Of a stretch of 64,000 bases of DNA, positions 37,820 to 58,249 are shown one piece after another. The translations under genes were made by a program, and so were the position numbers. The DNA is taken from IMG/VR virus record IMGVR_UViG_2843449061_000008, positions 1 through 64,000 of that record; one strand, 5' to 3'. This DNA is from a virus. Taxonomy: Duplodnaviria > Caudoviricetes. Each line of letters starts with the position of its first letter. Positions within the stretch are counted from its first letter, which is position 1. The notes under the pieces are model-generated. The model saw only the letters and a list, made by a program, of their open reading frames with translations. It had not been told where the DNA came from and searched no databases.

Positions 37820-38530
37820 ATGGCCCGTGAACGGCCCCAGACCAGCGCGAAGGAGTTCATCGACCGCTTCAACGCGCTGGGGATCGTCGGCGACGATGGC
37901 CAGCCGGTGACGGTGACGAAGGGCACCGTGTCCAAGCTGGTCAACGGGCAGGAGATGCCGCTGCTCGGCGTCACCTTCACCGTCACCATGCGCTGGCTGG
38001 CGGACAACACGGACCCGACGAAGCCGAAGTCGAAGCTGGGCACCGCGGCGCAGCGGTGGTTGAGCGGGCAGGGGCCAGTCCCAACCCCGCCGGTCCCGAA
38101 GACTCTGGGAGAGGCGCCAACGCGTCAGGCCGAAAAGCAGCCGACCGTGGTGGTGCTGCCGATGGAGGAAGGCGCTTCGGCCGGCGGCCGGAACACGACG
38201 GTCTCCGAGTCCCGGCGTGAAAAGGAACGGCTCGACGTCGAGCTGAAGAAGCGCGAACTCGCCAAGCATGACCGCGAGCACATCCCGCGGGCCGAGGTGG
38301 AGGTGGCGGTGGATGCCGCAATTACCGAGTTCCGCGGCCAGTTCGAGGGGTTCGCCGGGCTGCTGGCCCGTCAGGTCGCCGGAAAGACCGACACCGAGGC
38401 CTACACCCTGATCCAGGCTGAGGTTCGCCGGCTACTGGAGCGGTTGAGCACGAACCTGCGGAAGGCCGCGGTCGGGCTCGTCGAGGAGATGCACGACGGT
38501 GGGGCCGTCGATGAACCGGAAGGCGAGTGA
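37820..38530 (+). CDS. terS: Terminase small subunit (outer prophage)
   Basis: Nu1-like C-terminal helix (ESRREKERLDVELKK...IPRAEV); overlaps terL. Confidence 0.75.
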   Translation: MARERPQTSAKEFIDRFNALGIVGDDGQPVTVTKGTVSKLVNGQEMPLLGVTFTVTMRWLADNTDPTKPKSKLGTAAQRWLSGQGPVPTPPVPKTLGEAPTRQAEKQPTVVVLPMEEGASAGGRNTTVSESRREKERLDVELKKRELAKHDREHIPRAEVEVAVDAAITEFRGQFEGFAGLLARQVAGKTDTEAYTLIQAEVRRLLERLSTNLRKAAVGLVEEMHDGGAVDEPEGE

Positions 38531-40343
38531 CCTTCTCAACCGGATGGCGGCGGCTCTCGATCCGCCTCCGGAGATGGAACCCGACGAGTGGGCTGAGGAG
38601 AACATCGTCCTCCCCAAGAAGGAGGGGATGCCCGGCCCTTATCGGATGGCCCACACGCCGCAGTTCATCCCGTTCGTGCGCGCGTTCTGGGACCCGCGGT
38701 GGCGACGCATTGTCTTCGTCTGCGGCGCCCAGGAGGGGAAGTCCAGAGCCGTCCAGGCGGTGATCGGCAAGAAGCTGGACCATGAGCCGGCGCCGGTCAT
38801 CTATTACGGCCCGACCAAGACCTTCGTCGAGCGCACCATCGAGCCGCGCATCGTCGAGATGCTGAACTCCTCCAAGAGCCTGAAGGGCAAGACGCTCTGG
38901 GGGAAGAAGCAGAAGAAGACGCTGAAGATGGTCAGCGGTGCGCCGCTGATCCTGAGTTGGGCCAGTTCCGGTTCCGAGTTGGCCGGTCAGGAAGCCGCGT
39001 TGGTCTTCATCGACGAACGCGACCGCCTGGCCGACGACATCGACGGCGAGGGCGACCCGGTCGAGCAGGGCGAGGCGCGTATCGGCTCCTACGCCAACGG
39101 CAAGATCGGGATCATCTCGACGCCGAAGACCGGCGTCATCCGGAAGGAGCGGCATCCTGAAACGGGGCTGGAGCATTGGGCAATCGCCGACCTCAAGAAG
39201 GTCAACAGCCCAATCATCAAGCTCTGGTGGGAAGGTTCGCGCCACGAAATGGCGTGGCCCTGCCCAGAATGCGGCGACTACTTCATCCCGCACTCTGGAC
39301 TGCTGGATTGGGACGGAAAGGCTGACGGCACGGCGACGCCCGGCCAGGCGGCCCGCACGGTCAAGATGATCTGCGGATGCTGCGGGGTCCCGATCGCCGA
39401 GGCGCACAAGGAGCGGATGTGCGATCGCATGAGGCCGGTCGCGCCGGGGCAGCGGGTGGAGCCGGATGGAACGGTGGTGGGGCCTGACCCCGACACCGAT
39501 TGCTTCTCGATTTGGTCCAACGGGCTGATGTCCAAGTTTAAGTCCTGGGCCAAGCTGGTTCGGCGGTGGCTTTCCGCGCTGGCGTCCGGTGAGCCTGGGA
39601 AGGTGCAGGGCGTCGTCAACACGGGCTTCGGCGAACTGCACGCCGTCTCGGGCGACGCCCCGAAGCACTCCGCTGTCACGGACTGCAAGCTGCCCTACAA
39701 GCGGGGGCAGGTGCCCTACGGCGTCCAGCGGGTTGTTCTCACGGTCGACGTGCAGAAGCGCGGCGTCTATTGGGTGATGCGCGGGTGGGGCGCCCGGCGG
39801 GAATCCTGGCTGATCGACTACGGCTACCTGCCGGGCGAAACCGACGGCGCCGAGGTCTGGGACGAGCTGGAAGGCATCGTCCGGGCCGCTCTGCCCGGCA
39901 ACACAGGCGTCAACCTGCTGCTGATTGACTCCGGCTACCGGCCCGGCAAGCCGGCGGTGGTTCCGGAGAACGCCGTCTACGATTTCTGCCGGCGGTTCAG
40001 CCGCTCGTTCGCCCGGCCCATCAAGGGCGAGCGGTACCTGACCGGCAACAAGTGGTTCACCACCACGGACAACGACGTCGACAGCCGGGGCAGGGTGCGG
40101 AAATCCGCAGGCCTGATCCTGCACCGCCTCAACACGCACGAGTTCAAGAGCCGCGTGTTCGAGAAGATCACGCGGCGCAAGGAACTGGCTGGCGGCTGGC
40201 ATGTGCCGGAGGACGTCGACGACGCTTATGCCAAGCAGATCGTGTCGGAGACCTGCCGGTGGGTGGGTGGCAAGCCGATCTGGGACGAGTTGGGCGCCAA
40301 CCACTACCTCGACTGTGAGGTGGTCCAAGCGTCTCAGAGCTGA
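38511..40343 (+). CDS. terL: Terminase large subunit (GpA family), 5' part; truncated by the inserted element
   Basis: PDEWAEEN, GAQEGKS, IDERDR, ISTP, WPCPECG, LTVDVQ, LIDSG, IKG, NHYLDCE, then abrupt VVQASQS-stop. Confidence 0.93.
   Translation: MNRKASDLLNRMAAALDPPPEMEPDEWAEENIVLPKKEGMPGPYRMAHTPQFIPFVRAFWDPRWRRIVFVCGAQEGKSRAVQAVIGKKLDHEPAPVIYYGPTKTFVERTIEPRIVEMLNSSKSLKGKTLWGKKQKKTLKMVSGAPLILSWASSGSELAGQEAALVFIDERDRLADDIDGEGDPVEQGEARIGSYANGKIGIISTPKTGVIRKERHPETGLEHWAIADLKKVNSPIIKLWWEGSRHEMAWPCPECGDYFIPHSGLLDWDGKADGTATPGQAARTVKMICGCCGVPIAEAHKERMCDRMRPVAPGQRVEPDGTVVGPDPDTDCFSIWSNGLMSKFKSWAKLVRRWLSALASGEPGKVQGVVNTGFGELHAVSGDAPKHSAVTDCKLPYKRGQVPYGVQRVVLTVDVQKRGVYWVMRGWGARRESWLIDYGYLPGETDGAEVWDELEGIVRAALPGNTGVNLLLIDSGYRPGKPAVVPENAVYDFCRRFSRSFARPIKGERYLTGNKWFTTTDNDVDSRGRVRKSAGLILHRLNTHEFKSRVFEKITRRKELAGGWHVPEDVDDAYAKQIVSETCRWVGGKPIWDELGANHYLDCEVVQASQS
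40309..40315 (+). repeat. attL core TCGACTG
   Basis: Identical 7-mer at 57818..57824; surrounding 27 bp match at 20 of 27 positions. Confidence 0.85.
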
Positions 40344-40370
40344 AAATACCAATTTCAGAACAATGCATTA

Positions 40371-40402
40371 GGCCCTCTCGGACCCCTCCGGAGGGCCTTT
40401 GT
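40371..40402 (+). terminator. Possible hairpin terminator after the truncated terL
   Basis: GGCCCTC...GAGGGCC followed by TTTGT (weak U tract). Confidence 0.35.
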
Positions 40403-40448: not shown

Positions 40449-40516
40449 AATCAATGACTTAGGGCGCGGGCGCGGCAACGCCGCGACACATGAGTGACAC
40501 AAGGATGACGCAAGAG
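40449..40516 (+). promoter_or_regulatory. Left att arm: IHF consensus plus three arm-type repeats
   Basis: AATCAATGACTTA fits WATCAAN4TTR; GCGACACATGA, GTGACACAAGG, TGACGCAAGAG. Confidence 0.7.
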
Positions 40517-40533
40517 AAAGGAGCCATCCCACC

Positions 40534-40818
40534 ATGAATCGAGCCTCCAACACGCCGTCCGGCGGACAGATGCTTTACGGCTACAGAGCGATTGCCGGGC
40601 ATCTTGGACTAACCGAACGGCAGAGCAAGCACCTTGTCGAAACGGGCCGTCTGCGCTTCCCCGAAGACGGGGTGGAAGGGGACGTGTTCAAGGTCGGGCA
40701 TGTCGTCTGCGCCCTGGTCTCCAGCCTGGAACGATGGAAGGAGAGGGCGGCCCGCGGCGAGCTGAGCGCCGAGAAGGAACCCGGCCATGAGCACTCCCCT
40801 GAAGGCGAGGACGCCTAA
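40534..40818 (+). CDS. HTH protein, Xis/AlpA-like (satellite)
   Basis: LYGYRAIAGHLGLTERQSKHLVETGRL; GGAG RBS; first gene inside attL. Confidence 0.7.
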   Translation: MNRASNTPSGGQMLYGYRAIAGHLGLTERQSKHLVETGRLRFPEDGVEGDVFKVGHVVCALVSSLERWKERAARGELSAEKEPGHEHSPEGEDA

Positions 40819-42575: not shown

Positions 42576-43064
42576 ATGGCGACACAAACCGAAGTCGGGA
42601 AGCATCTCGACCTGTCCGACCGCTCCGTGCGGGAGTTGCTGGAGCGGGGAGTCCTGCCGAACGCTGCCCGCGGCGCCCTCGACCTCGACTGGTGCCGAAC
42701 CTCCTACATCCGCCATCTGCGGGAAATGGCCGCGGGCCGGGCGACCGGGCCGGCCGGTGACGACCTGACCAGCGAACGCGCCCGACTGGCCCGCGAACAG
42801 GCGGACAACATCGCCCTGAAGAACGCGGCGCTGCGGAAGGAGCTGCTTCCACGCTCCGACATCACCCGCGCCGTGGTCGCGGCGTTCCAGATCGTGCGCG
42901 ACCGGCTGTCAGCCCTGCCGGCGCGGCTGGCTGGGCCGCTGGCCGCGACCACCGATCCGGCGGAAGTGCGCGGGCGGCTGAGCGACGCGGTGAACGGCGT
43001 GCTGGTGGAGCTGAGCGAAACGCGCGTTGTCGCCACCGTCGAGGAGCCGGCTGATGCGGCTTGA
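42576..43064 (+). CDS. terS: Terminase small subunit, Nu1-like (satellite)
   Basis: N-terminal HTH TQTEVGKHLDLSDRSVREL; LTSERARLAREQAD..ALKN. Confidence 0.9.
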   Translation: MATQTEVGKHLDLSDRSVRELLERGVLPNAARGALDLDWCRTSYIRHLREMAAGRATGPAGDDLTSERARLAREQADNIALKNAALRKELLPRSDITRAVVAAFQIVRDRLSALPARLAGPLAATTDPAEVRGRLSDAVNGVLVELSETRVVATVEEPADAA

Positions 43065-44949
43065 CCTTCCTGTGTCCGAGCTGGTGGCGGAAACGGCGAC
43101 TGGGTGGTTCCCGGCGCTGCGGCCGGCGCCGCGGTTGTCGCTGGCCGAATGGGCGGAGCAACACGCGCGCCTCTATGACGGTGGCGCCTTCAGGCCCTAC
43201 GCCTATCAACGGGCGATCCTCGACGCGATGACCGACCCGGCGGTGCGCCGAATCACGCTCATGAAGTCGGCGCGCGTCGGCTACACGCAAATGCTGTCGG
43301 CGGCGCTGGGCTACTTCGTTGCGCAGCGGCCTTCCAAGATCATGGTGGTTCAGCCCACCACCGAAGACGCCGAGGACTACAGCAAGGACACCATCGATCC
43401 CTTGGGCGAATGGCCGGTGCTGGCCGGGCTGCTGTCCGAGGTGAAGGCCAAGACCAAGGGCAACACCATCAAGCGCAAAGCCTTCCCCGGCGGTTCGCTG
43501 CGCATCACCGGGGCGAACAGCCCACGCGCCTTCCGCCGCATCGACCTCGACGTGCTGCTGTTCGACGAGGTGGATGGCTATCCGCCGATGGCCGGGAAGG
43601 AAGGTGACCAGATCGCGTTGGGCCTGAAGCGCCTGACGCAATCGCTGCATCCCTTGGCCGTGCTGGGGAGCACGCCGCTTCTCGACGGGGAAAGCAAGAT
43701 CGCGGACGCCTTCGCGGCCGGGACCATGGAGCGTTACCATTTGCCGTGTCCCTGCTGCGGGGAGCTGCAAGCGCTGGTGTGGGGCGACGGGACCGGGCCG
43801 GGCATGCGCTGGACGGACAACGACCCGGACACCGTGCATTACGTCTGCGTCAACGGGTGCCCCTTCGGCGAGGAACACAAGCTCGACCTGCTGGAGCGCG
43901 GGCGTTGGATCGGGGAGACGCCGCGCAAGGATCATCGCAGCTTTCACATCTGGAGCGCCTATAGCCCGCTGCCCGGCGCGGCGTGGCCCGAGCTGGTCAA
44001 AGAGTTCCTGGCCGCCAAGCGCGATCGGGAAAAGCTGCAAGTCTGGACCAACACCGTGTTGGGTGAGTGCTGGGTGGACCGTGGCGAGGCCCCGGAGTGG
44101 CGGCGGTTGTACGACCGGCGCGAGACCTGGGAGCCGGGCACCGTTCCGGCCGGCGGGCTTTTCCTGACGGTCGGCGCCGACGTGCAGCGCGACCGGATCG
44201 AGGTGAGCGTGTGGGCATGGGGCCGGGGCAAGGAGTCCTGGCTGATCGAGCATCGGGTGTTGCCGGGCGATCCGTTCCAGGCGGCTGTCTGGCGCGACCT
44301 GACTTCGCTGCTGGCGGAGACCTGGCGCCACGAAAGCGGCACCGACCTGTCGGTGATGATGACGGCCATTGACGCGGGCGACGGCGTGACGATGGAGGCG
44401 GTGAAGGCGTGGGTGCGCAACGCCGGCCCGCGCGTCATGGCGATCAAGGGCAGTTCGCTGGCGCTGGCGCCGATCCTGGGCCAGCCGTCCGCTGCGGACG
44501 TGAACTATGGCGGCCGGAAGATCGCGGGCGGGGTGAAGCTCTGGCCGGTGGGCACCAGCGCGGCGAAGTCCGAGTTCTACGGCTTCCTGCGCCTCGACCG
44601 CCCGACCGAGGAAAGCGGCGAGCCGTTCCCGGCCGGCTTCGTCCACATCCCGCAGCATGTCGGCGAAGAGACGGTGAAACAGCTCGTCGCGGAACATCGG
44701 GTGACCCGCGGCGGCAAGGGCCGGCGCAGCGTCACCAGTTGGGAAAAGCTGCGGGATCGGAACGAGGCCCTGGATTGCCGAAACTACGCCCGCGCGGCGG
44801 CGGCCCGGCAAGGGCTGGAGCGCATGAACGACCCGGCATGGTCGGAGCTGGAGCGGGCCTTGGGTGTGCCCCGTGATCCGGCTGTGCCGGTGGCCACAGC
44901 GGCGCCGACGGCGCGGCGGGTGTCCCGCTCGTCCTGGCTGTCGGAGTAG
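43054..44949 (+). CDS. terL: Terminase large subunit, GpA family (satellite), intact
   Basis: KSARVGYT, FDEVDGYP, GSTP, CPCCG, GADVQ, IDAGDG, IKG, RNEALDC. Confidence 0.95.
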   Translation: MRLDLPVSELVAETATGWFPALRPAPRLSLAEWAEQHARLYDGGAFRPYAYQRAILDAMTDPAVRRITLMKSARVGYTQMLSAALGYFVAQRPSKIMVVQPTTEDAEDYSKDTIDPLGEWPVLAGLLSEVKAKTKGNTIKRKAFPGGSLRITGANSPRAFRRIDLDVLLFDEVDGYPPMAGKEGDQIALGLKRLTQSLHPLAVLGSTPLLDGESKIADAFAAGTMERYHLPCPCCGELQALVWGDGTGPGMRWTDNDPDTVHYVCVNGCPFGEEHKLDLLERGRWIGETPRKDHRSFHIWSAYSPLPGAAWPELVKEFLAAKRDREKLQVWTNTVLGECWVDRGEAPEWRRLYDRRETWEPGTVPAGGLFLTVGADVQRDRIEVSVWAWGRGKESWLIEHRVLPGDPFQAAVWRDLTSLLAETWRHESGTDLSVMMTAIDAGDGVTMEAVKAWVRNAGPRVMAIKGSSLALAPILGQPSAADVNYGGRKIAGGVKLWPVGTSAAKSEFYGFLRLDRPTEESGEPFPAGFVHIPQHVGEETVKQLVAEHRVTRGGKGRRSVTSWEKLRDRNEALDCRNYARAAAARQGLERMNDPAWSELERALGVPRDPAVPVATAAPTARRVSRSSWLSE

Positions 44950-45038
44950 ACGGCCGGCCCCGGCGCCATCTCCGAAGTTGAACGAATCGGCCAACAGTCC
45001 TATGGTTAGGCAATTATACCCTATTGAGGATAATTGTC

Positions 45039-46484
45039 ATGCTGTCGGGACTGCGGCGGACCGTTGGGAACCTGTTGATCCGCAGCCTCGACGCGGCCGG
45101 AGCCGGCAAGCGCTGGGGAGCCAAGTCCCGCATGGTGAACCTGAACGCCGAGATGCTGGCCGGTGCGTCCATCGCGGCGCAGCGCGCGGCCTACTTCGCC
45201 CGCAACAACCCGAACGTCGCCGCCGCGGTGAATGCCCTGGTGAGCAATGCCGTGGGGACCGGGATCAAGCCGCGGTCCAAGCACCCCGATCCGGCGGTGC
45301 GCGATGCGCTGCACAGCTTGTGGGAGCGGTGGGAGCGGGTGGCCGATGCGTCGGGCCGGGCCGGCGGCTTCTACGCTCAACAGGCCCTGGCCGTGCGCGC
45401 AATGATCGAGGGTGGGGAATCCTTCGCCCGTCTCCGCGCCCGGCTGCCGGAAGACGGCTTGCCGGTGCCGCTTCAGGTGGAGCTTATCAGCCGGGACCAA
45501 GTTCCCTCGACGCAGTGGCAGGAAATCCGACCCGGCAACCCGGTTCGGGCCGGGATCGAGTTCGACACGCTGGGCCGGCGGGTGGCGTTCTGGGTTCTGC
45601 CCTTCAATCCCAATGACCCCACCATGCCGGTGCTGGCGCCGACCTGGGAGCCGAAGCGGGTTCCGGCGGAGGACATGTTGCACCTGTTCCGCGAGCTGGT
45701 GGAGAACCAGCTTCGGGGACTGTCCTGGCTGGCGCCGATCCTGCTGCGCGTGAAGGAGCTGGACCAGTACGAAGACGCCGCCCTGGTCCGCGCCAAGGTC
45801 GCGGCGATGCTGGCCGGCTTCATCATGAACAAGGACGACGCCAACCCGGCTTGGCAGCCGCCGGCCAACGCCGAGACGCCGACGCTGGAACCGGGTGTGC
45901 TGGTGCCGCTGAACCCCGGCGAGTCCGTCGAGTTCACCAACCCGCCCGACGACAAGAACTATGACCCGTTCACGAAGAACCACATGCGGGCCATCGCGGT
46001 GGGGATCGGGGCGACGTACTTCCAAGTCTCGGGCGACCTCAAAGACGCCAACTACTCCAGCCTGCGCGGCGGGCTGGTGGAGTTCCGCCGCAGTGTCGAG
46101 CAGCTCCAGCACCTCACGATCATCCCGCAACTCTGCGACCCGGTATGGCGCCGCTTCGTGACGCTGGCCGTGCTGTCCGGCGCCATCGACGCGCCGGACT
46201 TCTTCCGCGACCCCGAACCCTACCTGTCCGCTGAATGGCTGCCGCCGGCCTTCGATTGGGTGGACCCGCTGAAGGACGTGCGGGCCGAAGTCGAGGCCAT
46301 CGAGGCGAAGCTGAAAAGCCGGGCGCAGTCCGTCGCCGAACGCGGCTACGACGTCGAAACCCTGGACTCGCAGATCGCCGCGGACGTGCAGCGGGAACAG
46401 CGGCTTGGCCTGCCCACCACGGCGACGAAGGCCGCTGCGCCGACCCAGCCGGACGAACCCACGGAGCCCCCCGCCAATGGCTGA
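45039..46484 (+). CDS. Lambda-family portal protein (satellite)
   Basis: NAVGTGIKP, GIEFD..GRRVA.W, QLRGLSW, NYSSLR, WVDPLKD. Confidence 0.93.
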   Translation: MLSGLRRTVGNLLIRSLDAAGAGKRWGAKSRMVNLNAEMLAGASIAAQRAAYFARNNPNVAAAVNALVSNAVGTGIKPRSKHPDPAVRDALHSLWERWERVADASGRAGGFYAQQALAVRAMIEGGESFARLRARLPEDGLPVPLQVELISRDQVPSTQWQEIRPGNPVRAGIEFDTLGRRVAFWVLPFNPNDPTMPVLAPTWEPKRVPAEDMLHLFRELVENQLRGLSWLAPILLRVKELDQYEDAALVRAKVAAMLAGFIMNKDDANPAWQPPANAETPTLEPGVLVPLNPGESVEFTNPPDDKNYDPFTKNHMRAIAVGIGATYFQVSGDLKDANYSSLRGGLVEFRRSVEQLQHLTIIPQLCDPVWRRFVTLAVLSGAIDAPDFFRDPEPYLSAEWLPPAFDWVDPLKDVRAEVEAIEAKLKSRAQSVAERGYDVETLDSQIAADVQREQRLGLPTTATKAAAPTQPDEPTEPPANG

Positions 46485-48339
46485 CACGTTCACCCGCGCC
46501 ATGGGCGCGACCACGCCGACCACGCTCAACCGCGAGGCCCGCACCGTCGAGGTGGTGGCGCTGTCCGGCCCGGCGCCCGCCGTGCGCCCGGCGCCCGCTC
46601 CGGACGGCACCCGTTCCGCCTGGATCGAGGAGCTGGACGCGGCCGGCGCCGACCTCTCCCGGTTCCGCGGCGGCCCGGCGCTGAAGGATCACCGCAACAC
46701 CACCGACGCCGCCGTGGGCACGGTGGCGGATGCGCGAGTCGACGGTGACCGGATCACCGGAACCGTCCGCTTCGACACCAGCGCCACGGCCGCCGACCTC
46801 ATGGCGAAGGTCGAGGCGGGCAGCGTACGCGGCGTGAGCCTGGGCTACAGCGTCCAGAAGTGGCAGCGGGCCGGTAAGCGCGACGGGCTGCCCGTCTTCC
46901 GTGCCATCGGCTGGGCGCCGCATGAGCTGAGCTTTACCCCTGTGCCGGTGGATGCCGGCGCCACCGTCCGTTCCCAAGGAGGCATCATGGACGACGACCA
47001 GACCACCACCGAGGCGGACGCCACGGCGGATACCACCACCACCGACACCAGCGCCCGCGCGGTGGACACCACCGCCAACCGGGCCGGGATCAACGGTCAG
47101 ATTCGGACGATGGTCCGCGCCGCTGGCCTGGAGATCGCCACCGCCGACCGGCTGATTGACGACGGCGCCGACCTCGACCGCGCCCGCGCCGCGGTGTTCG
47201 ACGCCATGCTGGCCCGCTCCAGCGGCCGGCCGCTCGCTGCCGTCCAGGTCCTGCACGATCACGACGATCCGGGGGCTGTGGTGGATCGCATGGCGACGGC
47301 TTTCGCAGCCCGCGCCACGGCGCACCTGCCGGAAGCGCACCGCGTCCAGATGCCGGAACAGGCCCGCGCCTATGCCGGCCGCTCCCTCCTCGACCTCGCC
47401 GCCGAGCTGGCCGACCGGCGCGGGAACCCGATCGGCACGCGGCACATGTCGCCCGCGGACCTCTACCAGCGCGCCATGACGACGGGCGACTTCCCGGTGC
47501 TGCTGGCGAACGCGGCCAACAAGACCCTCCTGCCGGCCTATCAGGCGGCGGCGCCGACCTACCGCCGGTTCTTCGCCCGGCGCGACTTCCGCGACTTCAA
47601 GCCCGCGTCGTTCGCCCGCGTCGGCGACTTCCCGGTGCCGCTGGCCGTGGGTGAGAACGGCGAGTACAAGCACGGCGCCATCAGCGAGAGCGGCGAGACG
47701 GTCACGCTGGGCGAGTATGGCCGGGTGGTCATGTTCAGCCGGAAGGCGTTGGTCAACGATGACCTGGGCGCCTTCGCCGACCTCCCGAGCAAGGCCGCCC
47801 TGCGCTGCGCCGATTGGGAAAACTCGGTGGCCTGGGCGCTGGTGGTCTCCAACCCGAAGCTGTCGGACGGCAAGACGCTGTTCCATGCCAGCCATGGCAA
47901 CCTCGCTTCCGCCGGCGGCGCCATCGACCTCGCGACCGTCTCCGCCGGCGAAGCGGCGATGATGAAGCAGACCAGCCTCGACGGGCTGAAGCTGAACCTC
48001 AAACCCGCCGTCCTGGCGACCGGGCCGGACCAGTTCACCGCGGCCCGTCAGTTCGTCAGCACCGCTGTTGCGCCGACCACGGCCGCCGCGGTCAACCCGC
48101 TGGCCGGGACGCTGACACCCGTGGGTGACGCGAACCTGCCGGGGCCGGGCTGGTATCTCATGGCCGAGCCGGCGGCGCTGGAGACCTTCGTTTACGGCTA
48201 CCTGCAGGGCCAGTCCGGGCCGATCATCACGCCCGAGCCGGGCTTCGACGTGGCCGGGGTGAAGGTCAAGCTCACCATCGACTTCGCCGTGGGCGCGGTG
48301 GACTACCGCGGCGCCTACTTCAACCCCGGCGCGGCCTGA
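46477..48339 (+). CDS. Prohead protease-major capsid fusion (satellite)
   Basis: ALKDH, VSLGY, ELSF protease motifs; TTGDFP.LL, DFK, YGR...SR.ALVNDDLGAF capsid motifs. Confidence 0.9.
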   Translation: MADTFTRAMGATTPTTLNREARTVEVVALSGPAPAVRPAPAPDGTRSAWIEELDAAGADLSRFRGGPALKDHRNTTDAAVGTVADARVDGDRITGTVRFDTSATAADLMAKVEAGSVRGVSLGYSVQKWQRAGKRDGLPVFRAIGWAPHELSFTPVPVDAGATVRSQGGIMDDDQTTTEADATADTTTTDTSARAVDTTANRAGINGQIRTMVRAAGLEIATADRLIDDGADLDRARAAVFDAMLARSSGRPLAAVQVLHDHDDPGAVVDRMATAFAARATAHLPEAHRVQMPEQARAYAGRSLLDLAAELADRRGNPIGTRHMSPADLYQRAMTTGDFPVLLANAANKTLLPAYQAAAPTYRRFFARRDFRDFKPASFARVGDFPVPLAVGENGEYKHGAISESGETVTLGEYGRVVMFSRKALVNDDLGAFADLPSKAALRCADWENSVAWALVVSNPKLSDGKTLFHASHGNLASAGGAIDLATVSAGEAAMMKQTSLDGLKLNLKPAVLATGPDQFTAARQFVSTAVAPTTAAAVNPLAGTLTPVGDANLPGPGWYLMAEPAALETFVYGYLQGQSGPIITPEPGFDVAGVKVKLTIDFAVGAVDYRGAYFNPGAA

Positions 48340-48341: not shown

Positions 48342-48557
48342 ATGGCGACGCTGGCCGACCTGATCGGAATGCGGGACGCCCTGGAGGCGGCCCGCTTCAG
48401 CGGCGTGCGCAAGGTGGTCTATGGCGACACCGAGACCGAATACAAATCCGACGCCGAAATGAAGCGGGCGCTTCTCGACCTCAACCGGAAGATCACCGCT
48501 GCCAGCGGGCCGGCCAGCTCGCCGTTCGTGACCTTCTCGACCTCGAAAGGACTGTGA
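48342..48557 (+). CDS. gpW-like head-tail adaptor (satellite)
   Basis: LEAARFSGVRKV.YGD...EYKSDAEM..AL. Confidence 0.82.
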   Translation: MATLADLIGMRDALEAARFSGVRKVVYGDTETEYKSDAEMKRALLDLNRKITAASGPASSPFVTFSTSKGL

Positions 48558-48904
48558 CCATGCGGAACTTCGTGCAAGCCGGCTGCAACCTCGACCTCAC
48601 CGCCCCGCGCGCCCTGGCGTCGGGGGAAGGTTTCATCGTCGGCGCCCTGTTCGCCATCGCCAGCACCGACGCGGCGAGCGGTGGCGCCCTGGTGGGCGTG
48701 ACCGAGGGCGTGTTCATCCTGCCGAAGAAGACGGCCGCCGTGATCGCCCTGGGCGGCCGGGTGAGCTGGGACGATGCCGTGCACCAGTGCGACGCACCCG
48801 GCGCCGGGCTCTACCCGGTGGGCGTGGCTGTGGAGGCCGCCGGCAACGGGGCCAGCACCGTGACGGTGCGGCTGGACGGCGTGAGCACTGCGGCGGCTGC
48901 GTAG
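48554..48904 (+). CDS. DUF2190 capsid cement/decoration protein
   Basis: MRNFVQAG..L.LTAP...SG, G.VSWD, VRLDG. Confidence 0.88.
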   Translation: MTMRNFVQAGCNLDLTAPRALASGEGFIVGALFAIASTDAASGGALVGVTEGVFILPKKTAAVIALGGRVSWDDAVHQCDAPGAGLYPVGVAVEAAGNGASTVTVRLDGVSTAAAA

Positions 48905-48959: not shown

Positions 48960-49273
48960 GTATAGATGCAGCAAAGGCACCACCGAACCCTTGTAGGTAT
49001 AGTAGGCTACAGGGGCGTACCTGCATTCTGACTGCATGGTGCTGACGAATCTACCCAATACCTAAACCGGATTGGTGAAAGCCTACCCTGCATAGTGCGG
49101 CGTTTGGTGTTTTCATCACTTAATGTGTTGCCTTCACAGAACCTGAGCCCAATATTAGAGAAGCCTTTGCCGAGCTGCACGACCTAAGCTGTTGGGCAAG
49201 GGAGTGGCATGATTGCTACTGTATGCTCATGTGAAAAATCAGCTTCGTTGATCAGTCAAATAAAGGTGGTGCA

Positions 49274-49465
49274 ATGGAAAATGAAATCAAGGAAGGATCG
49301 GTCGTTACGCTAAAATCTGGCGGGCCGAATATGACTGTTGCGTGGGTTGCTGAAGAATATGGAACCATCAAAGCTAACTGTGATTGGTTCGTGCAGGAGA
49401 AGGGAAGTTTTGCAAATAAGAATGCCACTTTTCCTTTGTCGTCTCTAAAGCTCTCTTCTGATTGA
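49274..49465 (+). CDS. YodC/DUF2158 family protein
   Basis: G.VV.LKSGGP.MTV...C.WF. Confidence 0.85.
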   Translation: MENEIKEGSVVTLKSGGPNMTVAWVAEEYGTIKANCDWFVQEKGSFANKNATFPLSSLKLSSD

Positions 49466-49680
49466 ACGGTTTGCGCCAGCTTCTCAAAGCTAGTCCATTC
49501 TGTTTTTCCCAGCCAATCACGGAACAGAATCAGGTGATGCGATTGCACATCCGAAGCTGTCCGCGATGGCCCGCCGGAACGGCATAAACAATGCTGCTAC
49601 GGCGTGACATGGGCAGCAATGTTCGACCCTGGAGCCGGCCGGCGCGTCTTGCCCGGCCGGCTTTTCTATGCGAGGTGACC

Positions 49681-49998
49681 ATGAGCAAGCCTGATTCGTC
49701 GTGCCCGGCCGTTGAGGTGCTGGACCTTCGCCTGTCGGACGGGATCGGGCAGACGCTGGCCGTTGCCGTCGTTCAGGTGGGGCCGGTGGAGATCCGTAAC
49801 GTGCGGGTGACCGACCGGGACGGACGGCTGTTCGTTCGGCTGCCGGGCACCCTCATGAGGAGGCGGCTGAAGCCGGCCGTCTGCCTCGACGAGCCGGTGT
49901 TTCTGGAGCTGCGCGAAGCGGTGTTGGCGGAGTACCGGGAGGTGGCCGGGGCGGACCCGTGGGGCGACGAGCGAGGCAGCAGAACGGCAGATGCCTGA
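49681..49998 (+). CDS. SpoVG-like nucleic-acid-binding protein
   Basis: IRNVRV.DRDGRLFV.LP...L.EAVL.EY. Confidence 0.6.
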   Translation: MSKPDSSCPAVEVLDLRLSDGIGQTLAVAVVQVGPVEIRNVRVTDRDGRLFVRLPGTLMRRRLKPAVCLDEPVFLELREAVLAEYREVAGADPWGDERGSRTADA

Positions 49999-50133
49999 GC
50001 TGGGTGGAGAAGAGAAAAACCTATTCGATTGGAGCGGTTTGCGGTTCTATCTACAGAATTAATGTCGCTGAAAAGACGCATTTATGGTACACATAACCCC
50101 TCATGCTAGAACAAGAAACAGAGATGCACGAAA

Positions 50134-50643
50134 ATGTCTATTTACCCCATCGGTGGAGCCTCTAGCTTTGATGACATGCCCAAGGGAACGATGTTTTACG
50201 GGGAGGTGGGTGACAAGATCGTTCTTCTTTTCCGTTGTGCAAAGGTAATAAGTCAATCTACAGAAGATATCGAATACGCTGCGGTCTTCGACAGGCAAGT
50301 GATACCGCATATCGGTAACCCTATTGTTATAGAAGGAGCTTCGTATTTTACTAACAAGTTGTTTGAGGTGAGGGGTTCTTATGTGAAGCCCGATCTTTCC
50401 TCTATGGATCTGTCCTACAATAACCCGAAGTTAGGGGATATAGTTTACTTTGAGTCCGCGGCTTACTTTGTCTTGGCGAGTGAGCGGCATGGGCGCATGT
50501 ATGTCAACATTGATACGGGATATGCGCTTGAGAACGTGAACCACGACCTGCCGCGCGCGATTTTCAGAAGATGGAGCATTGTGCAGCGGGTGTTCGACCG
50601 TGAGGAGGTGCTTTTCACTTACGAGCCTGCCCCGGCTCGGTGA
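50134..50643 (+). CDS. Low-GC hypothetical protein
   Basis: Long ORF in an AT-rich segment. Confidence 0.7.
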   Translation: MSIYPIGGASSFDDMPKGTMFYGEVGDKIVLLFRCAKVISQSTEDIEYAAVFDRQVIPHIGNPIVIEGASYFTNKLFEVRGSYVKPDLSSMDLSYNNPKLGDIVYFESAAYFVLASERHGRMYVNIDTGYALENVNHDLPRAIFRRWSIVQRVFDREEVLFTYEPAPAR

Positions 50644-50684
50644 GTGAAGCGTTCGGCCTGCCGCGGACCCGGCCGGGGCGGGCC

Positions 50685-50954
50685 TGTAACACACCTTGAC
50701 CGCCCTGTGTTGCAGCCTGTAACACAGGGTGTGTTGCAGGCTGTGTTGCAGGTGATCCGCCATGGCGACCCCGACCATTTCCGTTCGCGTATCTCCAGAA
50801 CATCAAGGGCTTGTCCGAGACGTGGCGGCCCGGCTGAAGGCCGATCCCGGCTTTGCTGACGTGCTGCGCGCCGCGCTGGGGGAGGGTGTGACACAGCCTG
50901 TCATACAGCCTGTGTTACGGCTTGGATCGCGGGGTGTGACACAGGCTGCAACAC
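50685..50954. repeat. Array of ~10 TGTAACAC/GTGTTGCA-type octamers, ~12-bp spacing, both orientations
   Basis: Five copies upstream of and five inside CDS 50762..51328. Confidence 0.75.
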
Positions 50955-51328
50955 AGGTGGACGGCCAGACCGCTCACCAGCGCCAGCCCGCGCCCGAAGG
51001 CCAGCCCGATCCTGCGGCCGGCGCCCTGGCCGATGTCCTGCGCCGGGTGGAGGTGCTGGAGGCGCATGTTGCCGACCTCCGGGGCAAGGCTGGCCGGCAA
51101 GCCAAGGTAGCCAGCCAACAGCAACGGCTGATCGCCGCCGCGGGGCTGGAAGGCGTCATGACCCGCCTGCAATACGCCGCGCACATCGGCGTGTCCAACC
51201 CGACCCTGACGCGCTGGGTGAAGCGGGGAATGCCGGTGCAGGACGATGGGCTGCTCGACGTCGAGGCGGTGGAGAGCTGGCGGAAGGCGAACGAGTCCCG
51301 GCTCCTGGCGGAGAGGGTGAAGGGGTAG
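50762..51328 (+). CDS. Two-domain DNA-binding protein (RHH-like N-terminus, MerR/Nu1-type HTH C-terminus)
   Basis: TISVRVSPEH; MTRLQYAAHIGVSNPTLTRWVKRGMP. Confidence 0.65.
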   Translation: MATPTISVRVSPEHQGLVRDVAARLKADPGFADVLRAALGEGVTQPVIQPVLRLGSRGVTQAATQVDGQTAHQRQPAPEGQPDPAAGALADVLRRVEVLEAHVADLRGKAGRQAKVASQQQRLIAAAGLEGVMTRLQYAAHIGVSNPTLTRWVKRGMPVQDDGLLDVEAVESWRKANESRLLAERVKG

Positions 51329-51536
51329 GGGGGGGCGGGCCGGCGACACCGGCCCGAGCGTCTACGAGGCCGGCGTCTACCGAAACAGTTTATTAGCGAT
51401 AATTTCGAATACGTGATGCGTGTGTTTAACTGATTCTGGTATAGCAGTCGGATGCCACGTGCGATGATAAGTCGTAGTGGAGTTGTTTAAGAGGCACCAG
51501 CTGGTGTTGAATCAGTATTAAAGGAATGGGGTCGAA

Positions 51537-52274
51537 ATGGAAATAACTCGAATCGAAAAATTTTCGGAATCGCAAGATTTCGGCCGCGAGACTCCAAAAT
51601 TCGAACTTGATTATTTTGGTAAAGATCTAATGGACCATAATGGTATAAAGTGGATTTATTTGATATGCCCTCATTGCGGGACGCGTGTTAAATTTTCACC
51701 CATACATGTTGTCGTGGTTAAGGGGGAAGAGCTTGGCATGCTGACTCGTGATTACCATTATCTTTGCAAATGCGAGTATTGCAACGATGTTGTTTATGCC
51801 AAATTTTGGGAAGTCGACTTTGATCCTGATTGGCATTTCGCGTATGAGATGCATTTCCCGGCGGCTATATTCAATGGAAGCGTTGATCTGCCAGAGCAAG
51901 TCAATGTATCGTTTTCAGAGGCCACGAAGTGTTTAAACGCGGATGCCAGCTTAGCTACTCTTGTTATGTGCCGTCGCACTGTTGAAGCTATAGTAAGAGA
52001 CAAGGGGGGTTCGAGTGGTGGTGGCCTATATTCTGAAATAGATAAGTTAATCAAGGATGGCACCCTCCCTGATTCCATGGGTCGCCTTGCGAATGTTATT
52101 AGGATGGTAGGCAATAAGGGTGCGCATGCATCTGAACTTGCCACGGATAGCAAGCAGGCTAGGGATGCGTATGAACTTACGAAGAAAATGATTGATGTAA
52201 TTTATCTGGTTCCAAGGCAGGTGCATGAAATAAGGAGCAAGCTTGAACAAGAAAAATCCGTTAAAACGGAGTGA
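51537..52274 (+). CDS. DUF4145 (HEPN-like) protein with N-terminal Zn ribbon
   Basis: CPHC..CEYC; A.LVMCRRTVE, IRMVGNKGAH. Confidence 0.85.
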   Translation: MEITRIEKFSESQDFGRETPKFELDYFGKDLMDHNGIKWIYLICPHCGTRVKFSPIHVVVVKGEELGMLTRDYHYLCKCEYCNDVVYAKFWEVDFDPDWHFAYEMHFPAAIFNGSVDLPEQVNVSFSEATKCLNADASLATLVMCRRTVEAIVRDKGGSSGGGLYSEIDKLIKDGTLPDSMGRLANVIRMVGNKGAHASELATDSKQARDAYELTKKMIDVIYLVPRQVHEIRSKLEQEKSVKTE

Positions 52275-52326
52275 GGAATAATATAGGATATGCCGACTGA
52301 ATAAAGACGTAAGTAATTAGTTTTTC

Positions 52327-53358
52327 ATGATACGTCAATCAATCCAAAAATGGAGTGCTAGGCAAATGAAAGCAACAACAAGTGAGCTTCGCGTCAAAAA
52401 CCACAACGAGTGGCCCGCTGTCGAATTATTCCCCTGTGAGATTGAGCTTCTACAGAGGTTGGCGCAAAAGAATATGCAGCAAATCTTTATCACGGCTAGG
52501 TTCATGCCTGATGAAAAGGATGAACCATTTAACGCCGCAGTAGGACACATATTGGACTGTCTGGATTCCCTACCAAAACGTCCTGACGCAGCTTTTGATA
52601 GCCTATACAAGGTTATTGATAGCAACCTTGCGGAATTTTCTGAGCCCAATTTGTCCCCCATGCATAGCACTGTAAAAGCCTTTTTTTTGGCTCACCCATC
52701 CGAATGGAGCAAAATTACCGAGATCTTGTCTGCTAATTTGCCTCAGCAAACCGCAGACTACGCGGCATCGCGTATTCTCGATTGCCACGTTGATGGCGGG
52801 CTTCCCCATGCCGATGAAATAAAGAAAAGAGCCAGCAGAAGCCTAGGGAAGCAGCGCTATAAAGATTTCTGTGAAAAATATCTTGTAGAAAACCCGCAGA
52901 TGCAAGGTAGCTACAGCATGCCATACGAAAACAGGAGGAATGCTGGCCGCTTGATGAAGTTACTATTTAGATTAAAGAAATCCGGTGATTGCTCTGGCGA
53001 TGTCAGCAAAATTGAGGCAAGTGACCAGATGGGGGTGCAATACAATAGTCTGGATTTGGGGGAAGACTGCAATAGGCTTTCTTCTGATGAAAAGTTAAAG
53101 GTGATAATGGAGGCTTGTCTTTATACGTACAGAAATGAGCGCTTCCACGGAGATGCATTTTCGCCATTCAGAAGCGGAAAAGCAAAACTTAAGACGTATG
53201 CGCATGCCTATTTTATGTTGAATGCGGCTTACGTTATTGTGCTTGGCATGCTTCATTTGCAAGGGAAAGGGGGTATTTCTATTTCGCATATTGTTGAGAT
53301 AACAATTCGGTCTATGCAGCAATTCGCGGCATTCTTTGAAGATGTTGTTAACGAATAG
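52327..53358 (+). CDS. Low-GC protein with HEPN-type RxxxxH motif
   Basis: YTYRNERFHG near the C-terminus. Confidence 0.65.
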   Translation: MIRQSIQKWSARQMKATTSELRVKNHNEWPAVELFPCEIELLQRLAQKNMQQIFITARFMPDEKDEPFNAAVGHILDCLDSLPKRPDAAFDSLYKVIDSNLAEFSEPNLSPMHSTVKAFFLAHPSEWSKITEILSANLPQQTADYAASRILDCHVDGGLPHADEIKKRASRSLGKQRYKDFCEKYLVENPQMQGSYSMPYENRRNAGRLMKLLFRLKKSGDCSGDVSKIEASDQMGVQYNSLDLGEDCNRLSSDEKLKVIMEACLYTYRNERFHGDAFSPFRSGKAKLKTYAHAYFMLNAAYVIVLGMLHLQGKGGISISHIVEITIRSMQQFAAFFEDVVNE

Positions 53359-53560
53359 AATGTCGAGGACGGTACTAGACGGCCCGTTTGTAGCTCGGTA
53401 ACTGCGGCGGCGTACTGCTGCTCCAACTCAGCCACATACGTGATGGCTTGCCTAGCCATACCCTCCAAGGCGCCGAGCCCAAGCCGCGCTGCGCGGCCTT
53501 CTGAGGGGGGCTTACGGAGTAGGGCAGGGCGGCTCATCTTGGCCGGACTGCTGGCACCCG

Positions 53561-53601
53561 AAAAGCAGAAGCCCGCCGGGTCTCCCGCGGCGGGCTTTCT
53601 T
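53561..53601. terminator. Hairpin between convergent accessory genes
   Basis: AGAAGCCCGCCG...CGGCGGGCTTTCT. Confidence 0.5.
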
Positions 53602-53726
53602 AGGGCGCTGGGTGGCGATCCAGCTGACGGTGATTGGGTTCTGTGGCGTATGGGGCAACCTGGGTTGCCCCCTCTGCCTTGGGCGCGTTGGGCGGGATTC
53701 TGAAGGTTAGTCATAGTGCGAGAAAC

Positions 53727-54215
53727 TTAGGTTTCGGGACTCTTCTTCGATTTGACGAATTTGTATCCTTCTCGGAAGCCATGAAGCTGCCCGCAAAGGA
53801 AATTAATGGAAGCCCTCAATTGTATTGCGGTATCGTTCGCACTTTTCCTGGCTTCTGAAGTTCCGCTGACGCCAACATCATCTAAAAATTTATTTATATA
53901 TTCATCTATTTTAGGATGCTCAATATTATGAGCTATCTTGTTTCTAAGAGTGTTTAGCTTCTCGGCGCTGTCTAAAAGCGCATCAACATGGCGCACAGGG
54001 AGTAGTGCTCTTACTAGCCGTAATCTTTGCGCAAATCGAAATTGATCAACATCAATAGCGGTGGGGTTTGCTAAAAGATCCACCATAAAACCATTAACTA
54101 TTTCTTCCATCAGGAGATGCCCCTTTAGCACTACTAACGTGACATCGTTTGATGTTGGAAACAGCCTTTCAAATCGCTCATCAAATTCCTCAAAACTTGT
54201 TTTTTCGAATGACAT
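53727..54215 (-). CDS. Small HEPN-type protein
   Basis: VLKGHLLMEE...LNTLRNKIAH. Confidence 0.75.
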   Translation of the reverse strand: MSFEKTSFEEFDERFERLFPTSNDVTLVVLKGHLLMEEIVNGFMVDLLANPTAIDVDQFRFAQRLRLVRALLPVRHVDALLDSAEKLNTLRNKIAHNIEHPKIDEYINKFLDDVGVSGTSEARKSANDTAIQLRASINFLCGQLHGFREGYKFVKSKKSPET

Positions 54216-54353
54216 GCAACCTCCTTATCAATGGGTGTACTTATTACACTTAGCGCGCTAAGTTTTTTCAGGTGTCGATCGGGCTTCTGCAGATAGCCCC
54301 GCTCGACCAACCAAGCCTTCAACACTCGCTCGACCAGCGACGACACAGACCGG

Positions 54354-54605: not shown

Positions 54606-54667
54606 GGCACTTTTAGTGACATTCATTGTTGACCGATGCCATCACGATATGGCACTTTTAGTGACAT
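54604..54667. promoter_or_regulatory. Two identical 19-bp near-palindromic operators ATGGCACTTTTAGTGACAT
   Basis: 54604..54622 (overlaps the XRE start) and 54649..54667, in the divergent gap. Confidence 0.8.
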
Positions 54668-54744
54668 AGCAAGCGCGGCCGAACCGGGTGTTGGGAGCAT
54701 CCGGCCCGGCCTGACCACAATCGAGCTGCATGGAGCTACGGATC

Positions 54745-58244: not shown

Positions 58245-58249
58245 CGCAT

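Follow-up and report, generated by a model that had tools for sequence, protein, structure and literature searches.

The window analysed here, a 64,000-nucleotide stretch of a Caudoviricetes record (IMG/VR IMGVR_UViG_2843449061_000008, positions 1 to 64,000), contains a gpA-family large terminase gene (terL) that stops early, and its missing 3' end lies far downstream. The locus raises the question of what split this gene, and whether the shortened protein has a role of its own. We consider it probable that a tyrosine integrase put a 17,509-bp, capsid-forming and tail-less satellite into the terL of a helper phage, a reversible split of which the truncated TerL is a by-product. Table 1 lists the features of the locus.

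Table 1. Features of the split terL locus, in coordinates of the window
Feature	Position	Strand	Details
Helper terL (gpA family), 5' part	38499..40343	+	614 aa from GTG 38499, 610 aa from ATG 38511
attL core region	40303..40329	+	left of core, helper DNA; right of core, satellite (attP-derived) arm
G+C-rich terminator-like hairpin	40370..40398	+	12-bp stem; 27 nt past the truncated terL stop
Tandem GACRCAAG pair	40496..40514	+	11-bp spacing; ~181-199 bp right of core
AlpA/excisionase-like HTH, 94 aa, first satellite gene	40534..40818	+	phrog_18541
Satellite small terminase	42576..43064	+	phrog_57 6.5e-29
Satellite large terminase, gpA family	43027..44949	+	complete, 640 aa; Pfam 5.5e-94 and 1.7e-57
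Satellite lambda-type portal	45024..46484	+	Pfam Phage_portal_2 3.9e-94
Satellite protease-major capsid fusion	46405..48339	+	Phage_capsid_4 3e-46; weak N-terminal DUF2213 match
Satellite Ad1 head-tail adaptor (gpW-like, 71 aa) and cement/decoration protein (116 aa)	48342..48904	+	
Low-GC cargo	49000..54700		45-56% GC vs ~67%
DUF4145/PD-T7-4-like defence gene	51537-52274		in low-GC cargo
HTH 'control protein'	54354-54626	-	in low-GC cargo
Rha/Ant-like regulator, 410 aa, C-terminal HTH_17	54730..55962	+	divergent from HTH repressor-like gene
Tyrosine integrase, 398 aa, last satellite gene	56600..57796	+	stop 21 nt before attR core
Second tandem pair	57761..57779	+	~39-57 bp left of core; kept in L097
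attR core region	57812..57838	+	left of core, satellite arm; right of core, helper DNA
Orphan terL 3' fragment	57814..58023	+	YFDC and 65 further residues; ends ARMGRIPGL*
Helper gpW-like adaptor and lambda-type portal	58035..59788	+	helper late operon continues

Boundaries of the inserted element

A preliminary description of this DNA had reported two similar 27-mers, and the count was reproduced. The two match, ungapped, at 20 of 27 positions, each is single-copy, and in the terL frame the left one reads YLDCEVVQ and the right one YFDCEMMQ, as described. An identical 7-bp core, TCGACTG, occupies 40309-40315 and 57818-57824, with mismatches on either side (C..T on the left, T..C on the right). 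For random pairs of 27-mers from the window, a 20/27 match has P = 1.65e-5, a level at which such pairs are common window-wide. We also compared two 51-nt regions set independently, by the break and the resumption of homology to uninterrupted terL; 20/27 was reached in 3 of 2000 random pairs of such regions.

Homology to uninterrupted terL stops at 40316 and restarts at 57818. Homologues without the interruption were found in L012 (97% identical), P0003 (98%) and L013 (53%), all with NHYLD[CA]EMMQEAAAE; the 97-98% identical ones have 674-678 aa, and uninterrupted homologues read NHYLDCEMMQEAAAE... at the site. Additionally, a 1739-nt contig of 97% identity, from runs X2 and X3 of two studies, joins 40308 to 57818 and skips 17,509 bp. 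The site is thus the interior of a late (morphogenesis) gene that is uninterrupted in relatives. The data support the 27-mers as attL and attR of a 17,509-bp satellite integrated in a gpA-type terL. A transposon-type target-site duplication was rejected on account of the imperfect likeness of the flanks, the tyrosine integrase beside attR and the same arm in another helper. An origin of attP from the satellite's own terL was also rejected, as the equivalent motif there is only 10/28 identical to attB; the satellite TerL reads NEALDC, and the core TCGACTG is absent. The satellite-side attL arm gave zero exact matches among viral contigs.

The motif GACRCAAG matches seven times in the window, and four of the seven are arranged as two tandem pairs, with each att site having one next to it (the second as GACACAAG). 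By sequence, the pairs are putative arm-type integrase sites, and the left one may alternatively be an Xis site. The hairpin behind the truncated terL (RNA fold -24.8 kcal/mol, z = -3.4) was missed by a simple terminator scan and was seen by folding; an equivalent hairpin, followed by a U-run, is present in L099. In the excised circle, this hairpin would come after int and attP. Among the public sequencing runs listed, all of them assembled Logan contigs, at most 28% of the words sampled from the window were recovered in any one run, no RNA run was found, and no excised form was seen.

To the right of the insert, the helper portal is followed by an S49 protease, capsid and tail genes, up to ~85 kb of the record. 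The resident helper is a siphovirus-like prophage, and its host is probably Azospirillum, judging by the organism names of the closest homologues.

Gene content of the insert

The insert encodes a head and packaging set comprising TerS, a gpA-type TerL, portal, protease-capsid fusion, adaptor Ad1 (phrog_2545 2e-17) and cement protein (Phage_cement_2 4e-20). No tail or lysis families were found among its ORFs scanned with Pfam, PHROGs and PADLOC, of which several small ones were matchless, and none was recognised as a primase or replication gene. HNH had no match in any scanned ORF, and the satellite TerL belongs to the lambda gpA family. The integrase matches Pfam Phage_integrase (4e-24), with a weak Arm-DNA-bind_4 match and Arm-DNA-bind_3 absent.

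The backbone ORFs (40534-48904 and 54730-57796) are all on the plus strand, as is terL, and the minus strand carries only three cargo or regulator ORFs. The gene order includes the AlpA-like HTH, the Rha/Ant-like regulator and the late zone, with int at the end opposite to the PICI order, which runs from int-alpA through a Bro zone and replication (primase) to the late zone. The 94-aa HTH and the HTH_17-like C-terminus of the 410-aa regulator fall into one family, and relatives of the former adjoin integrases of the same clade as the satellite's. A decayed second prophage was rejected as the source of the insert, since the head-only module is also found in complete genomes (L100 and L101), where, with other integrases, it makes up islands of ~15 kb flanked by host genes. 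As a side observation, satellite and helper have in common a 17-nt cos-like sequence, which in each lies upstream of terS.

The split terminase gene

The truncated ORF ends in translation with ...NHYLDCEVVQASQS*, the stop being at 40341-40343. The description of a 610-aa TerL with EVVQASQS in place of the last 65 residues holds for the length counted from the ATG; strictly, 64 residues are replaced by seven (VVQASQS), since the E after DC is common to both forms. The 5' part matches Pfam GpA_ATPase (4e-39) and GpA_nuclease (2e-48), the nuclease profile being covered only to 280/294. The product thus contains the gpA ATPase domain and the C-terminal RNase-H-like nuclease domain. The claim that it retains its DCE motif was confirmed: the Asp of NHYLDCE, invariant in 55 sequences, is present in the truncated form, as is most of the last nuclease helix.

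No solved structure was matched by the TerL sequence, and Foldseek matched the large terminases of HK97, Sf6 and T4. In the AlphaFold2 models, the last nuclease helix starts at the invariant Asp and is prolonged by the seven foreign residues (helix 602-613, spanning VVQASQS, pLDDT 85-95). The prolongation is a weak piece of evidence, as AlphaFold2 given an alignment of homologues would draw the last helix anyway. In the truncated form this helix is shortened, and a nearly invariant Ala is replaced by Ser.

The truncated product is without the C-terminal prohead (portal)-binding tail, which is encoded 17.5 kb downstream. The orphan fragment there corresponds to the remainder of the last nuclease helix and a predicted disordered tail. 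An in-frame ATG ATG (57829; the EMMQ codons) lies just past the crossover, and in the window as well as in L096 and L097 Met is the first residue of the stranded tail. The window and L013 both end in ARMGRIPGL, and their portals are 73% identical. L012 and L014 have TerL bodies 97% and 89% identical, but their tail is another one, and their portal is 37% identical. The missing tail probably serves in docking on the portal, as it is predicted to be disordered and switches with the portal type while the TerL body stays 97% identical. By analogy with lambda gpA, for which a prohead-binding domain has been described (Sippy & Feiss 1992; Yeo & Feiss 1995; as summarised in PMC4856287), the truncated TerL is likely to fail in docking.

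Related integrations

The same site is used in another helper. In L097, a 99%-identical integrase with an identical satellite arm occupies the same codon of a helper with ClpP, a gpE-type capsid and a tail sheath. In L096, a 61%-identical integrase with other cargo was found at the same position, and a second assembly (L098) contains the same composite as the window at 99.99% identity. In a quick tree with SH-aLRT support, the integrases formed coherent site groups, and 4/4 members of the gpA-600 subclade were at this 3' position.

More distant integrases of the clade (33-53% identical, from Alphaproteobacteria) lie directly upstream of head genes lacking their 5' part. The genes hit are gpA terL (resuming from profile positions 77-105, 232, 348 or 481), a lambda-type portal, a Terminase_1-type terL and ClpP; in two genomes, the missing 5' parts were located upstream, at distances of 11.6 kb and 19.9 kb. 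Insertions of the clade into terL range over codons ~77-600, and the present site, at the very 3' end, is unlike most of them. Of the relatives whose left flank is known, the closest (L099, integrase 86% identical) is located at a chromosomal look-alike site; therefore, helper embedding is not obligatory. An IS66 transposase directly follows int in L094/L099.

Role of the truncated terminase

The likeness of the att ends had been read as mimicry of the target codons for the sake of the protein product, a view that we do not share. It is limited to ~27 bp around the 7-bp crossover core. In L099 the satellite arm is kept as DNA (11/13) but would encode ELV* rather than EVVQASQS*, and a similar 'mimicry' occurs at terL codon ~100 in L004, an unrelated clade member (KLINPP for TLIYQP, core TCCGGCGCG). 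Because core-type sites of similar sequence have to be bound by the integrase in either partner, attP resembles attB over ~27 bp, and with no indel between the 27-mers the likeness automatically reads as similar codons. It is ordinary attP/attB core-site resemblance, a DNA-level property, and the in-frame likeness is no evidence for protein mimicry.

It had further been proposed that the truncated enzyme cuts cos but cannot dock, and so acts as a built-in interference factor. The enzymatic part is plausible. The Asp is retained, the tail is probably the docking element, and the tail-less gpA of lambda Aam42 still nicks cos and assembles into Complex I, yet is unable to dock on the portal (PMC4856287), with activity here argued by analogy. 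Some activity may indeed persist, because the 3'-end site spares both enzymatic domains and the foreign residues are predicted to complete the helix. A selected role in interference, in which the 610-aa TerL binds helper TerS, cuts cos and fails to dock, trapping helper DNA in dead-end complexes and leaving tails free for satellite heads, is nevertheless unlikely. The whole ATPase and nuclease domains, the modelled helix and the 3' position common to the gpA-600 subclade speak for it. However, the appended peptide is not conserved in L099, and the cuts that sister integrases make in terL can leave no more than fragments. In split portal and ClpP genes no active product is possible, so the effect common to the clade is plain reversible gene disruption. 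Moreover, Aam42 served in PMC4856287 as an allele presumed to be recessive, and its yield increased there when wild type was co-infected; a null terL would serve the satellite equally well, with no helper packaging and free tails; the last helix is shortened and altered; and a hairpin terminator directly follows the truncated ORF. The truncated protein is thus most likely a by-product and not a selected inhibitor. An elaboration in which the helper TerL is turned into two antagonists, a cos-nicking, docking-dead enzyme and a free portal-binding peptide, is in our view very unlikely. The stranded tail begins with Met because the crossover is immediately upstream of the conserved ATG ATG; if the idea were true, a tail peptide translated from the int transcript could occupy helper portals, and the site of the gpA-600 subclade would disarm the helper even after some copies restore terL.

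The in-frame attP arm could instead be a minimal version of the 3'-end replacement known from elements targeting tRNA or icd genes, finishing the last nuclease helix so that TerL remains folded and harmless, or a nuclease usable by the satellite. The conservative changes (M,M to V,V; Q kept; A to S), the predicted helix and the common cos-like sequence fit this idea, but the arm of L099 stops after two codons, the likeness is absent outside 27 bp, and the helix would be drawn from the homologue alignment regardless; we hold it to be very unlikely. Also unlikely is a dead-end state, an accidental or ancient insertion with an inactive satellite, helper or both and a truncated TerL without a role. 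Tommasini et al. (PMC10111431) mention many truncated helpers and off-target events, L094/L099 combines the IS66 transposase with a chromosomal site, and assembled contigs showed no excised form. Against this, every satellite ORF and every head or tail ORF of the helper that was read is open, both att cores are intact, the composite recurs almost unchanged in a second assembly, and a near-identical integrase in another helper implies recent activity.

In the preferred reading, a reversible split with the truncated TerL as by-product, the integrase inserted the satellite at the core TCGACTG, within the codons of NHYLDCEMMQ, which is the most conserved motif of gpA-type large terminases. The 5' product keeps both enzymatic domains but not the probable docking tail, and as long as the satellite stays integrated the helper would be unable to package its own DNA. 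The gene would be made whole again by precise excision, a form of 'regulated gene integrity' of the helper-embedded satellite type, and the satellite would use helper tails. A site in terL also ensures that every landing place of the satellite comes with a donor of tails.

The satellite targets the motif with the catalytic Asp of gpA terminases, where the helper has little room for change, and a single satellite occupies this motif in at least two different helpers. Helper-embedded satellite life is not limited to one enterobacterial integrase clade; it arose independently in an unrelated alphaproteobacterial integrase lineage, here with a complete lambda-type head and packaging module. The locus offers a tractable system, in plant-associated bacteria that are non-pathogenic, for how a satellite gates helper packaging in cis.

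Comparison with known systems

The closest known kind is the HE-PICIs (Tommasini, Mageeney & Williams 2023, PMC10111431), founded on Eco567.11capE of E. coli NRG857c, and the present element is a variant with an unrelated integrase lineage. Both have a short identity block between attL and attR, an attP without functional replacement and a late gene disrupted until excision; in our case, the attP supplies seven foreign codons and a stop, and not the 64-residue remainder with the tail. In both, head genes are repeated targets of the integrase clade, the integrase tree shows coherent site groups, some insertions are off-target and chromosomal, attP has a doubled motif on its flanks, and the backbone genes are co-oriented with the interrupted late gene. 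For HE-PICIs, induction is described as leading to excision of the composite and replication, after which the satellite leaves and the late gene is restored. The integrase here, however, falls outside the published HE-PICI clade, a branch of P4/PICI-type integrases: its identity to the 11capE integrase (L102:19504-20739) is 23% over 181 aa (pairwise E 0.001), and the 11capE protein has Arm-DNA-bind_3 (3e-19), whereas ours has only the weak Arm-DNA-bind_4. The integrase gene is at the downstream end here, beside attR, and at the upstream end in HE-PICIs; the hosts are Alphaproteobacteria here and Enterobacteriaceae there; and our element has a full packaging and head module, with no primase recognised. 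The paper lists 14 sites, and in its accessible portion none is named in a gpA-family terL, the only terminase site being A:Terminase_1:245/246.

In gene content, the element resembles the cf-PICIs of the EcCIEDL933 type (bioRxiv 10.1101/2022.09.08.507074), which are likewise ~15-18 kb islands with their own TerS, TerL, portal, protease, capsid and adaptor. Elements of that type build small capsids of their own and get just the tails from a helper. Tail genes are absent here, so presumably only tails are borrowed. The described cf-PICIs have an HNH-dependent terminase and chromosomal attB sites (bioRxiv 10.1101/2022.09.08.507074), whereas the module here is lambda-type (gpA TerL, lambda-family portal and protease-capsid fusion) and HNH was not found.

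The truncated product recalls lambda Aam42 in being a gpA-family TerL without its extreme C-terminus. Aam42 loses five residues; the exchange here removes 64, among them the end of the last nuclease helix, and adds seven foreign ones. Finally, the locus is similar to regulated gene integrity, or active lysogeny, in that a site-specific recombinase reversibly splits a coding gene, with precise restoration expected on excision. The difference is that the gene split here is part of a second mobile element, the helper phage, and that it is the satellite which would profit, as Tommasini et al. (PMC10111431) argue.

Insertion of the satellite in the helper terL

The ORF interrupted in the helper prophage codes for a large terminase (TerL) of the lambda gpA type; it matches GpA_ATPase and GpA_nuclease, the latter profile being covered only to position 280 of 294. 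The preliminary description had reported a 610-residue product and two look-alike 27-mers, and both were confirmed. Uninterrupted TerL proteins occur in locus L012 (97% identical, 678 aa), in P0003 (98%, 674 aa; named Azospirillum argentinense) and in L013 (53%), and all three are continuous across the junction (...GANHYLD[CA]EMMQEAAAE...). A 1739-nt contig of 97% identity, found in two public sequencing runs from two studies, represents the empty site, as it joins 40308 to 57818 and skips 17,509 bp. The window is a portion of an 88-kb IMG/VR provirus record; 3' of 57838 the helper continues with a gpW-like adaptor, a lambda-type portal, an S49 protease, and then capsid and tail genes. The ORF at the helper tape-measure position is unusually long (3242 aa). 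There is good support for the insertion, for where its boundaries lie, and for loss of the docking tail.

Coordinates of the features (window positions unless marked)
Feature	Position	Remark or counterpart
Helper terL, interrupted ORF	38499-40343	ATG at 38511
Left 27-mer (attL)	40303-40329	core 40309-40315
Right 27-mer (attR)	57812-57838	core 57818-57824
Stranded terL tail, ATG ATG	57829-58023	L096:8094-8237; L097:2261-2404
Target-motif alleles		L012:4801-4840; L014:2797-2836; L096:8046-8100
Cos-like sequence, helper	36632-36660	upstream of terS
Cos-like sequence, satellite	42448-42475	upstream of terS
G+C-rich hairpin	40370-40398	L099:7365-7391
AlpA-like HTH protein		satellite
Small terminase and complete gpA-type large terminase		satellite
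Lambda-type portal and protease-capsid fusion		satellite
Ad1 adaptor and cement protein		satellite
Portal-to-cement module	45039-48900	L100:12023-15899
Low-GC cargo block with PD-T7-4-like defence gene		satellite
Cargo ORF, 188 aa	50762-51328	satellite
DUF4145 protein (the PD-T7-4-like gene), low-GC cargo	51537-52274	satellite
Divergent pair, HTH repressor-like/Rha-Ant-like		satellite
HTH 'control protein'	54354-54626(-)	repressor-like member of the pair, divergent from the Rha/Ant-like regulator
Tyrosine integrase		stop 21 nt before attR core
Helper tape-measure-position ORF	67856-77584 of the record	outside window

Attachment sites

Each 27-mer occurs once in the window. The two are identical, ungapped, at 20 of 27 positions, with the central TCGACTG shared and mismatches on either side. 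In the frame of the interrupted ORF, the left copy encodes YLDCEVVQ, then ASQS and a stop codon, and the right copy encodes YFDCEMMQ, its frame staying open for 61 further codons to 58023. For a random 27-mer pair from the window the chance of 20/27 is P = 1.65e-5, so that such pairs are abundant across the window; the two compared regions were set independently, by the break in terL homology, and among 2000 pairs of 51-nt regions drawn at random only 3 reached that score. The reconstructed sites are CACTACC-TCGACTG-CGAGATGATGCAGG (attB) and GAAATTACT-TCGACTG-TGAGGTGGTCCAAG (attP). In the satellite's own terL, the equivalent motif matches attB at only 10 of 28 positions and does not contain the core, so this gene is no target.

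The preliminary description interpreted the likeness as mimicry of the target codons. It reads in frame because there is no indel, and it stops beyond about 27 bp (four matches in the next 12 positions). The satellite-side arms of the window and of L099, a related locus, are 11/13 identical as DNA (GAGGTGGTCCAAG vs GAGTTGGTCTAAG), yet translation of the L099 arm would give ELV* and that of the window EVVQASQS*. In L004, an integrase 42% identical to that of the window splits another gpA terL at codon ~100; attL reads AYDPAR-KLINPP, the intact gene would read AYDPAR-TLIYQP, and the core is 9 bp. Selection for codon mimicry is therefore not supported, and the likeness is the resemblance that core-type sites of attP and attB ordinarily show. 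Two tandem GACRCAAG pairs are putative arm-type sites; one lies ~39-57 bp to the left of the attP core, the other ~181-199 bp to its right.

The same site is used in other helpers. In L097, a 99%-identical integrase and an identical satellite-side arm (GGGCGGAAATTACT-TCGACTG) precede the 3' part of terL in a different helper, which has ClpP, gpE-type capsid, tail sheath and tube genes. In L096, a 61%-identical integrase with different cargo lies at the same codon position of a third helper, with motif DAE and core TCGACGC. An 86%-identical relative (L094/L099) sits beside a host GntR gene, in a sequence that resembles the terL site (CACTGCA-TCGACTG vs CACTACC-TCGACTG); it is an off-target event such as those described by Tommasini et al. 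(PMC10111431). A contig from another organism (run X1) spans the attL side around 39834-40490 with few differences and is unlike the window upstream of 39834; it may carry this satellite end within a further terL context. Two alleles of the target motif occur: DCE, which contains TCGACTG, and DAE, which has TCGACGC, is without the window satellite's core and is the site of the L096 integrase. They may represent target-site variation under satellite pressure.

The truncated terminase

The Asp of NHYLDCE is invariant among 55 aligned gpA-type terminases, and the Asn, the Leu and the Ala seven residues past the Asp are at least 90% conserved. The AlphaFold2 model of intact P0003 (mean pLDDT 87) is similar to the large terminases of HK97, Sf6 and T4; its last helix (598-612) has the Asp in the first turn, and the tail is disordered from residue 633. 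In the model of the window protein (mean pLDDT 88) the last helix runs on through VVQASQS, which is weak evidence since the prediction is driven by the homologue alignment. The tails of the window and L013 both end in ARMGRIPGL, and their portals are 73% identical; L012 and L014, whose TerL bodies are 97% and 89% identical, have a different tail (…SSWRTPNMRPRR), and their portal shares only 37% identity. By this comparison, the TerL tail goes with the portal type.

The helper is mosaic from 57838 onward relative to L012 from 4840 onward: the TerL body is 97% identical, and the tail is of the other type, as are gpW and portal (57% and 37% identity). This break lies at NHYLDCEMMQEAAAE, and the conserved motif is therefore also the place where recombination separates packaging modules from head modules. 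In the window, L096 and L097 the stranded terL tail always starts at a conserved in-frame ATG ATG directly past the crossover, where gene callers predict ORFs of 47-64 aa; no good Shine-Dalgarno sequence is visible before it in the window.

The truncated TerL had been proposed to cut cos, fail to dock on helper proheads and act as a built-in interference factor. In lambda, the Aam42 enzyme, with its last five residues missing, can nick cos and assemble Complex I, yet it is unable to dock; in that study the allele was expected to be recessive, and co-infection with wild-type phage raised the yield (PMC4856287). Given this behaviour and the tail-portal pairing, docking failure is likely, cos cutting plausible and dominant inhibition unsupported. 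A built-in interference factor is not supported. The related insertion sites mostly leave only fragments of the target protein; their common effect is therefore gene disruption, not a particular truncated enzyme. The most economical reading is that a helper-embedded, capsid-forming satellite reversibly inactivates the helper terL by insertion. Excision is predicted to reverse the inactivation, and the tail-less satellite, with its own head module, would use helper tails.

Satellite genes and family

No tail or lysis families were found among the satellite genes. The DUF4145 protein matches the single-gene defence system PD-T7-4 (6e-13), and the HTH 'control protein' and the Rha/Ant-like regulator are likely the satellite's repressor switch. 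Residues 131-180 of the 188-aa cargo ORF are a terS-like or MerR-like HTH segment (phrog_57, 1e-10), which makes a second, partial DNA-binding domain of the small-terminase kind. The hairpin is conserved just inside the left satellite end. While the satellite is integrated, the hairpin comes after the truncated terL and could halt transcription of the helper late genes unless antiterminated; in the circular form it would be the int transcript terminator. Helper and satellite share the cos-like sequence CGGGTCCTTCC(A)GGGGC, and cross-recognition of cos sites by their terminases is conceivable.

In complete A. argentinense and Rhodospirillum centenum genomes the head-only module recurs, at 78-94% DNA identity, as ~15-kb islands flanked by host genes. 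These islands carry different integrases at the opposite element end from the window's. The module thus belongs to a satellite family whose integration modules are exchangeable, and not to a decayed prophage. The A. argentinense chromosomal satellite L100 shares the portal-to-cement module at 94% DNA identity, but its integrase is P4-type and lies at the opposite end, and it has a TIR-domain gene; this points to recent exchange of integration and cargo modules.

The integrase clade and known satellites

A scan of species-representative genomes with the integrase alignment gave ~33 alphaproteobacterial loci (33-53% identity). In at least 16, a head gene without its 5' part follows the integrase at a distance of 3-190 nt. 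The gene is gpA terL (from profile position 77, 89, 92, 92-105, 105, 232, 348 or 481), lambda-type portal (from ~379-391), Terminase_1-type terL, or ClpP protease. This arrangement, with the integrase directly upstream, is seen in L004, L006/L041, L007, L015-L018, L022, L025, L029, L035, L036, L038, L040 and L044. Two genomes have the missing 5' part 11.6 kb and 19.9 kb upstream; in L004 and L035 the distance is ~10-11 kb. In a quick maximum-likelihood tree, the group inserting near codon 600 of gpA (window, L097, L094, L096) forms one clade, and the other site groups are also coherent.

Helper-embedded PICIs (HE-PICIs) were described in Enterobacteriaceae by Tommasini, Mageeney and Williams 2023 (PMC10111431), who report late-gene expression delayed until excision, off-target events, an integrase clade with late-gene tropism, and a doubled motif that the paired GACRCAAG parallels. 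The founder HE-PICI of E. coli NRG857c has a P4-type integrase with Arm-DNA-bind_3, whereas the window's integrase lacks this domain, is only 23% identical over 181 aa and lies at the opposite element end. The alphaproteobacterial integrases are a second, independent clade with late-gene tropism. Described capsid-forming PICIs (cf-PICIs) have an HNH-dependent terminase and chromosomal sites. The element in the window combines the HE-PICI and cf-PICI ideas; its head module is lambda-type, and its integrase belongs to an independent lineage.
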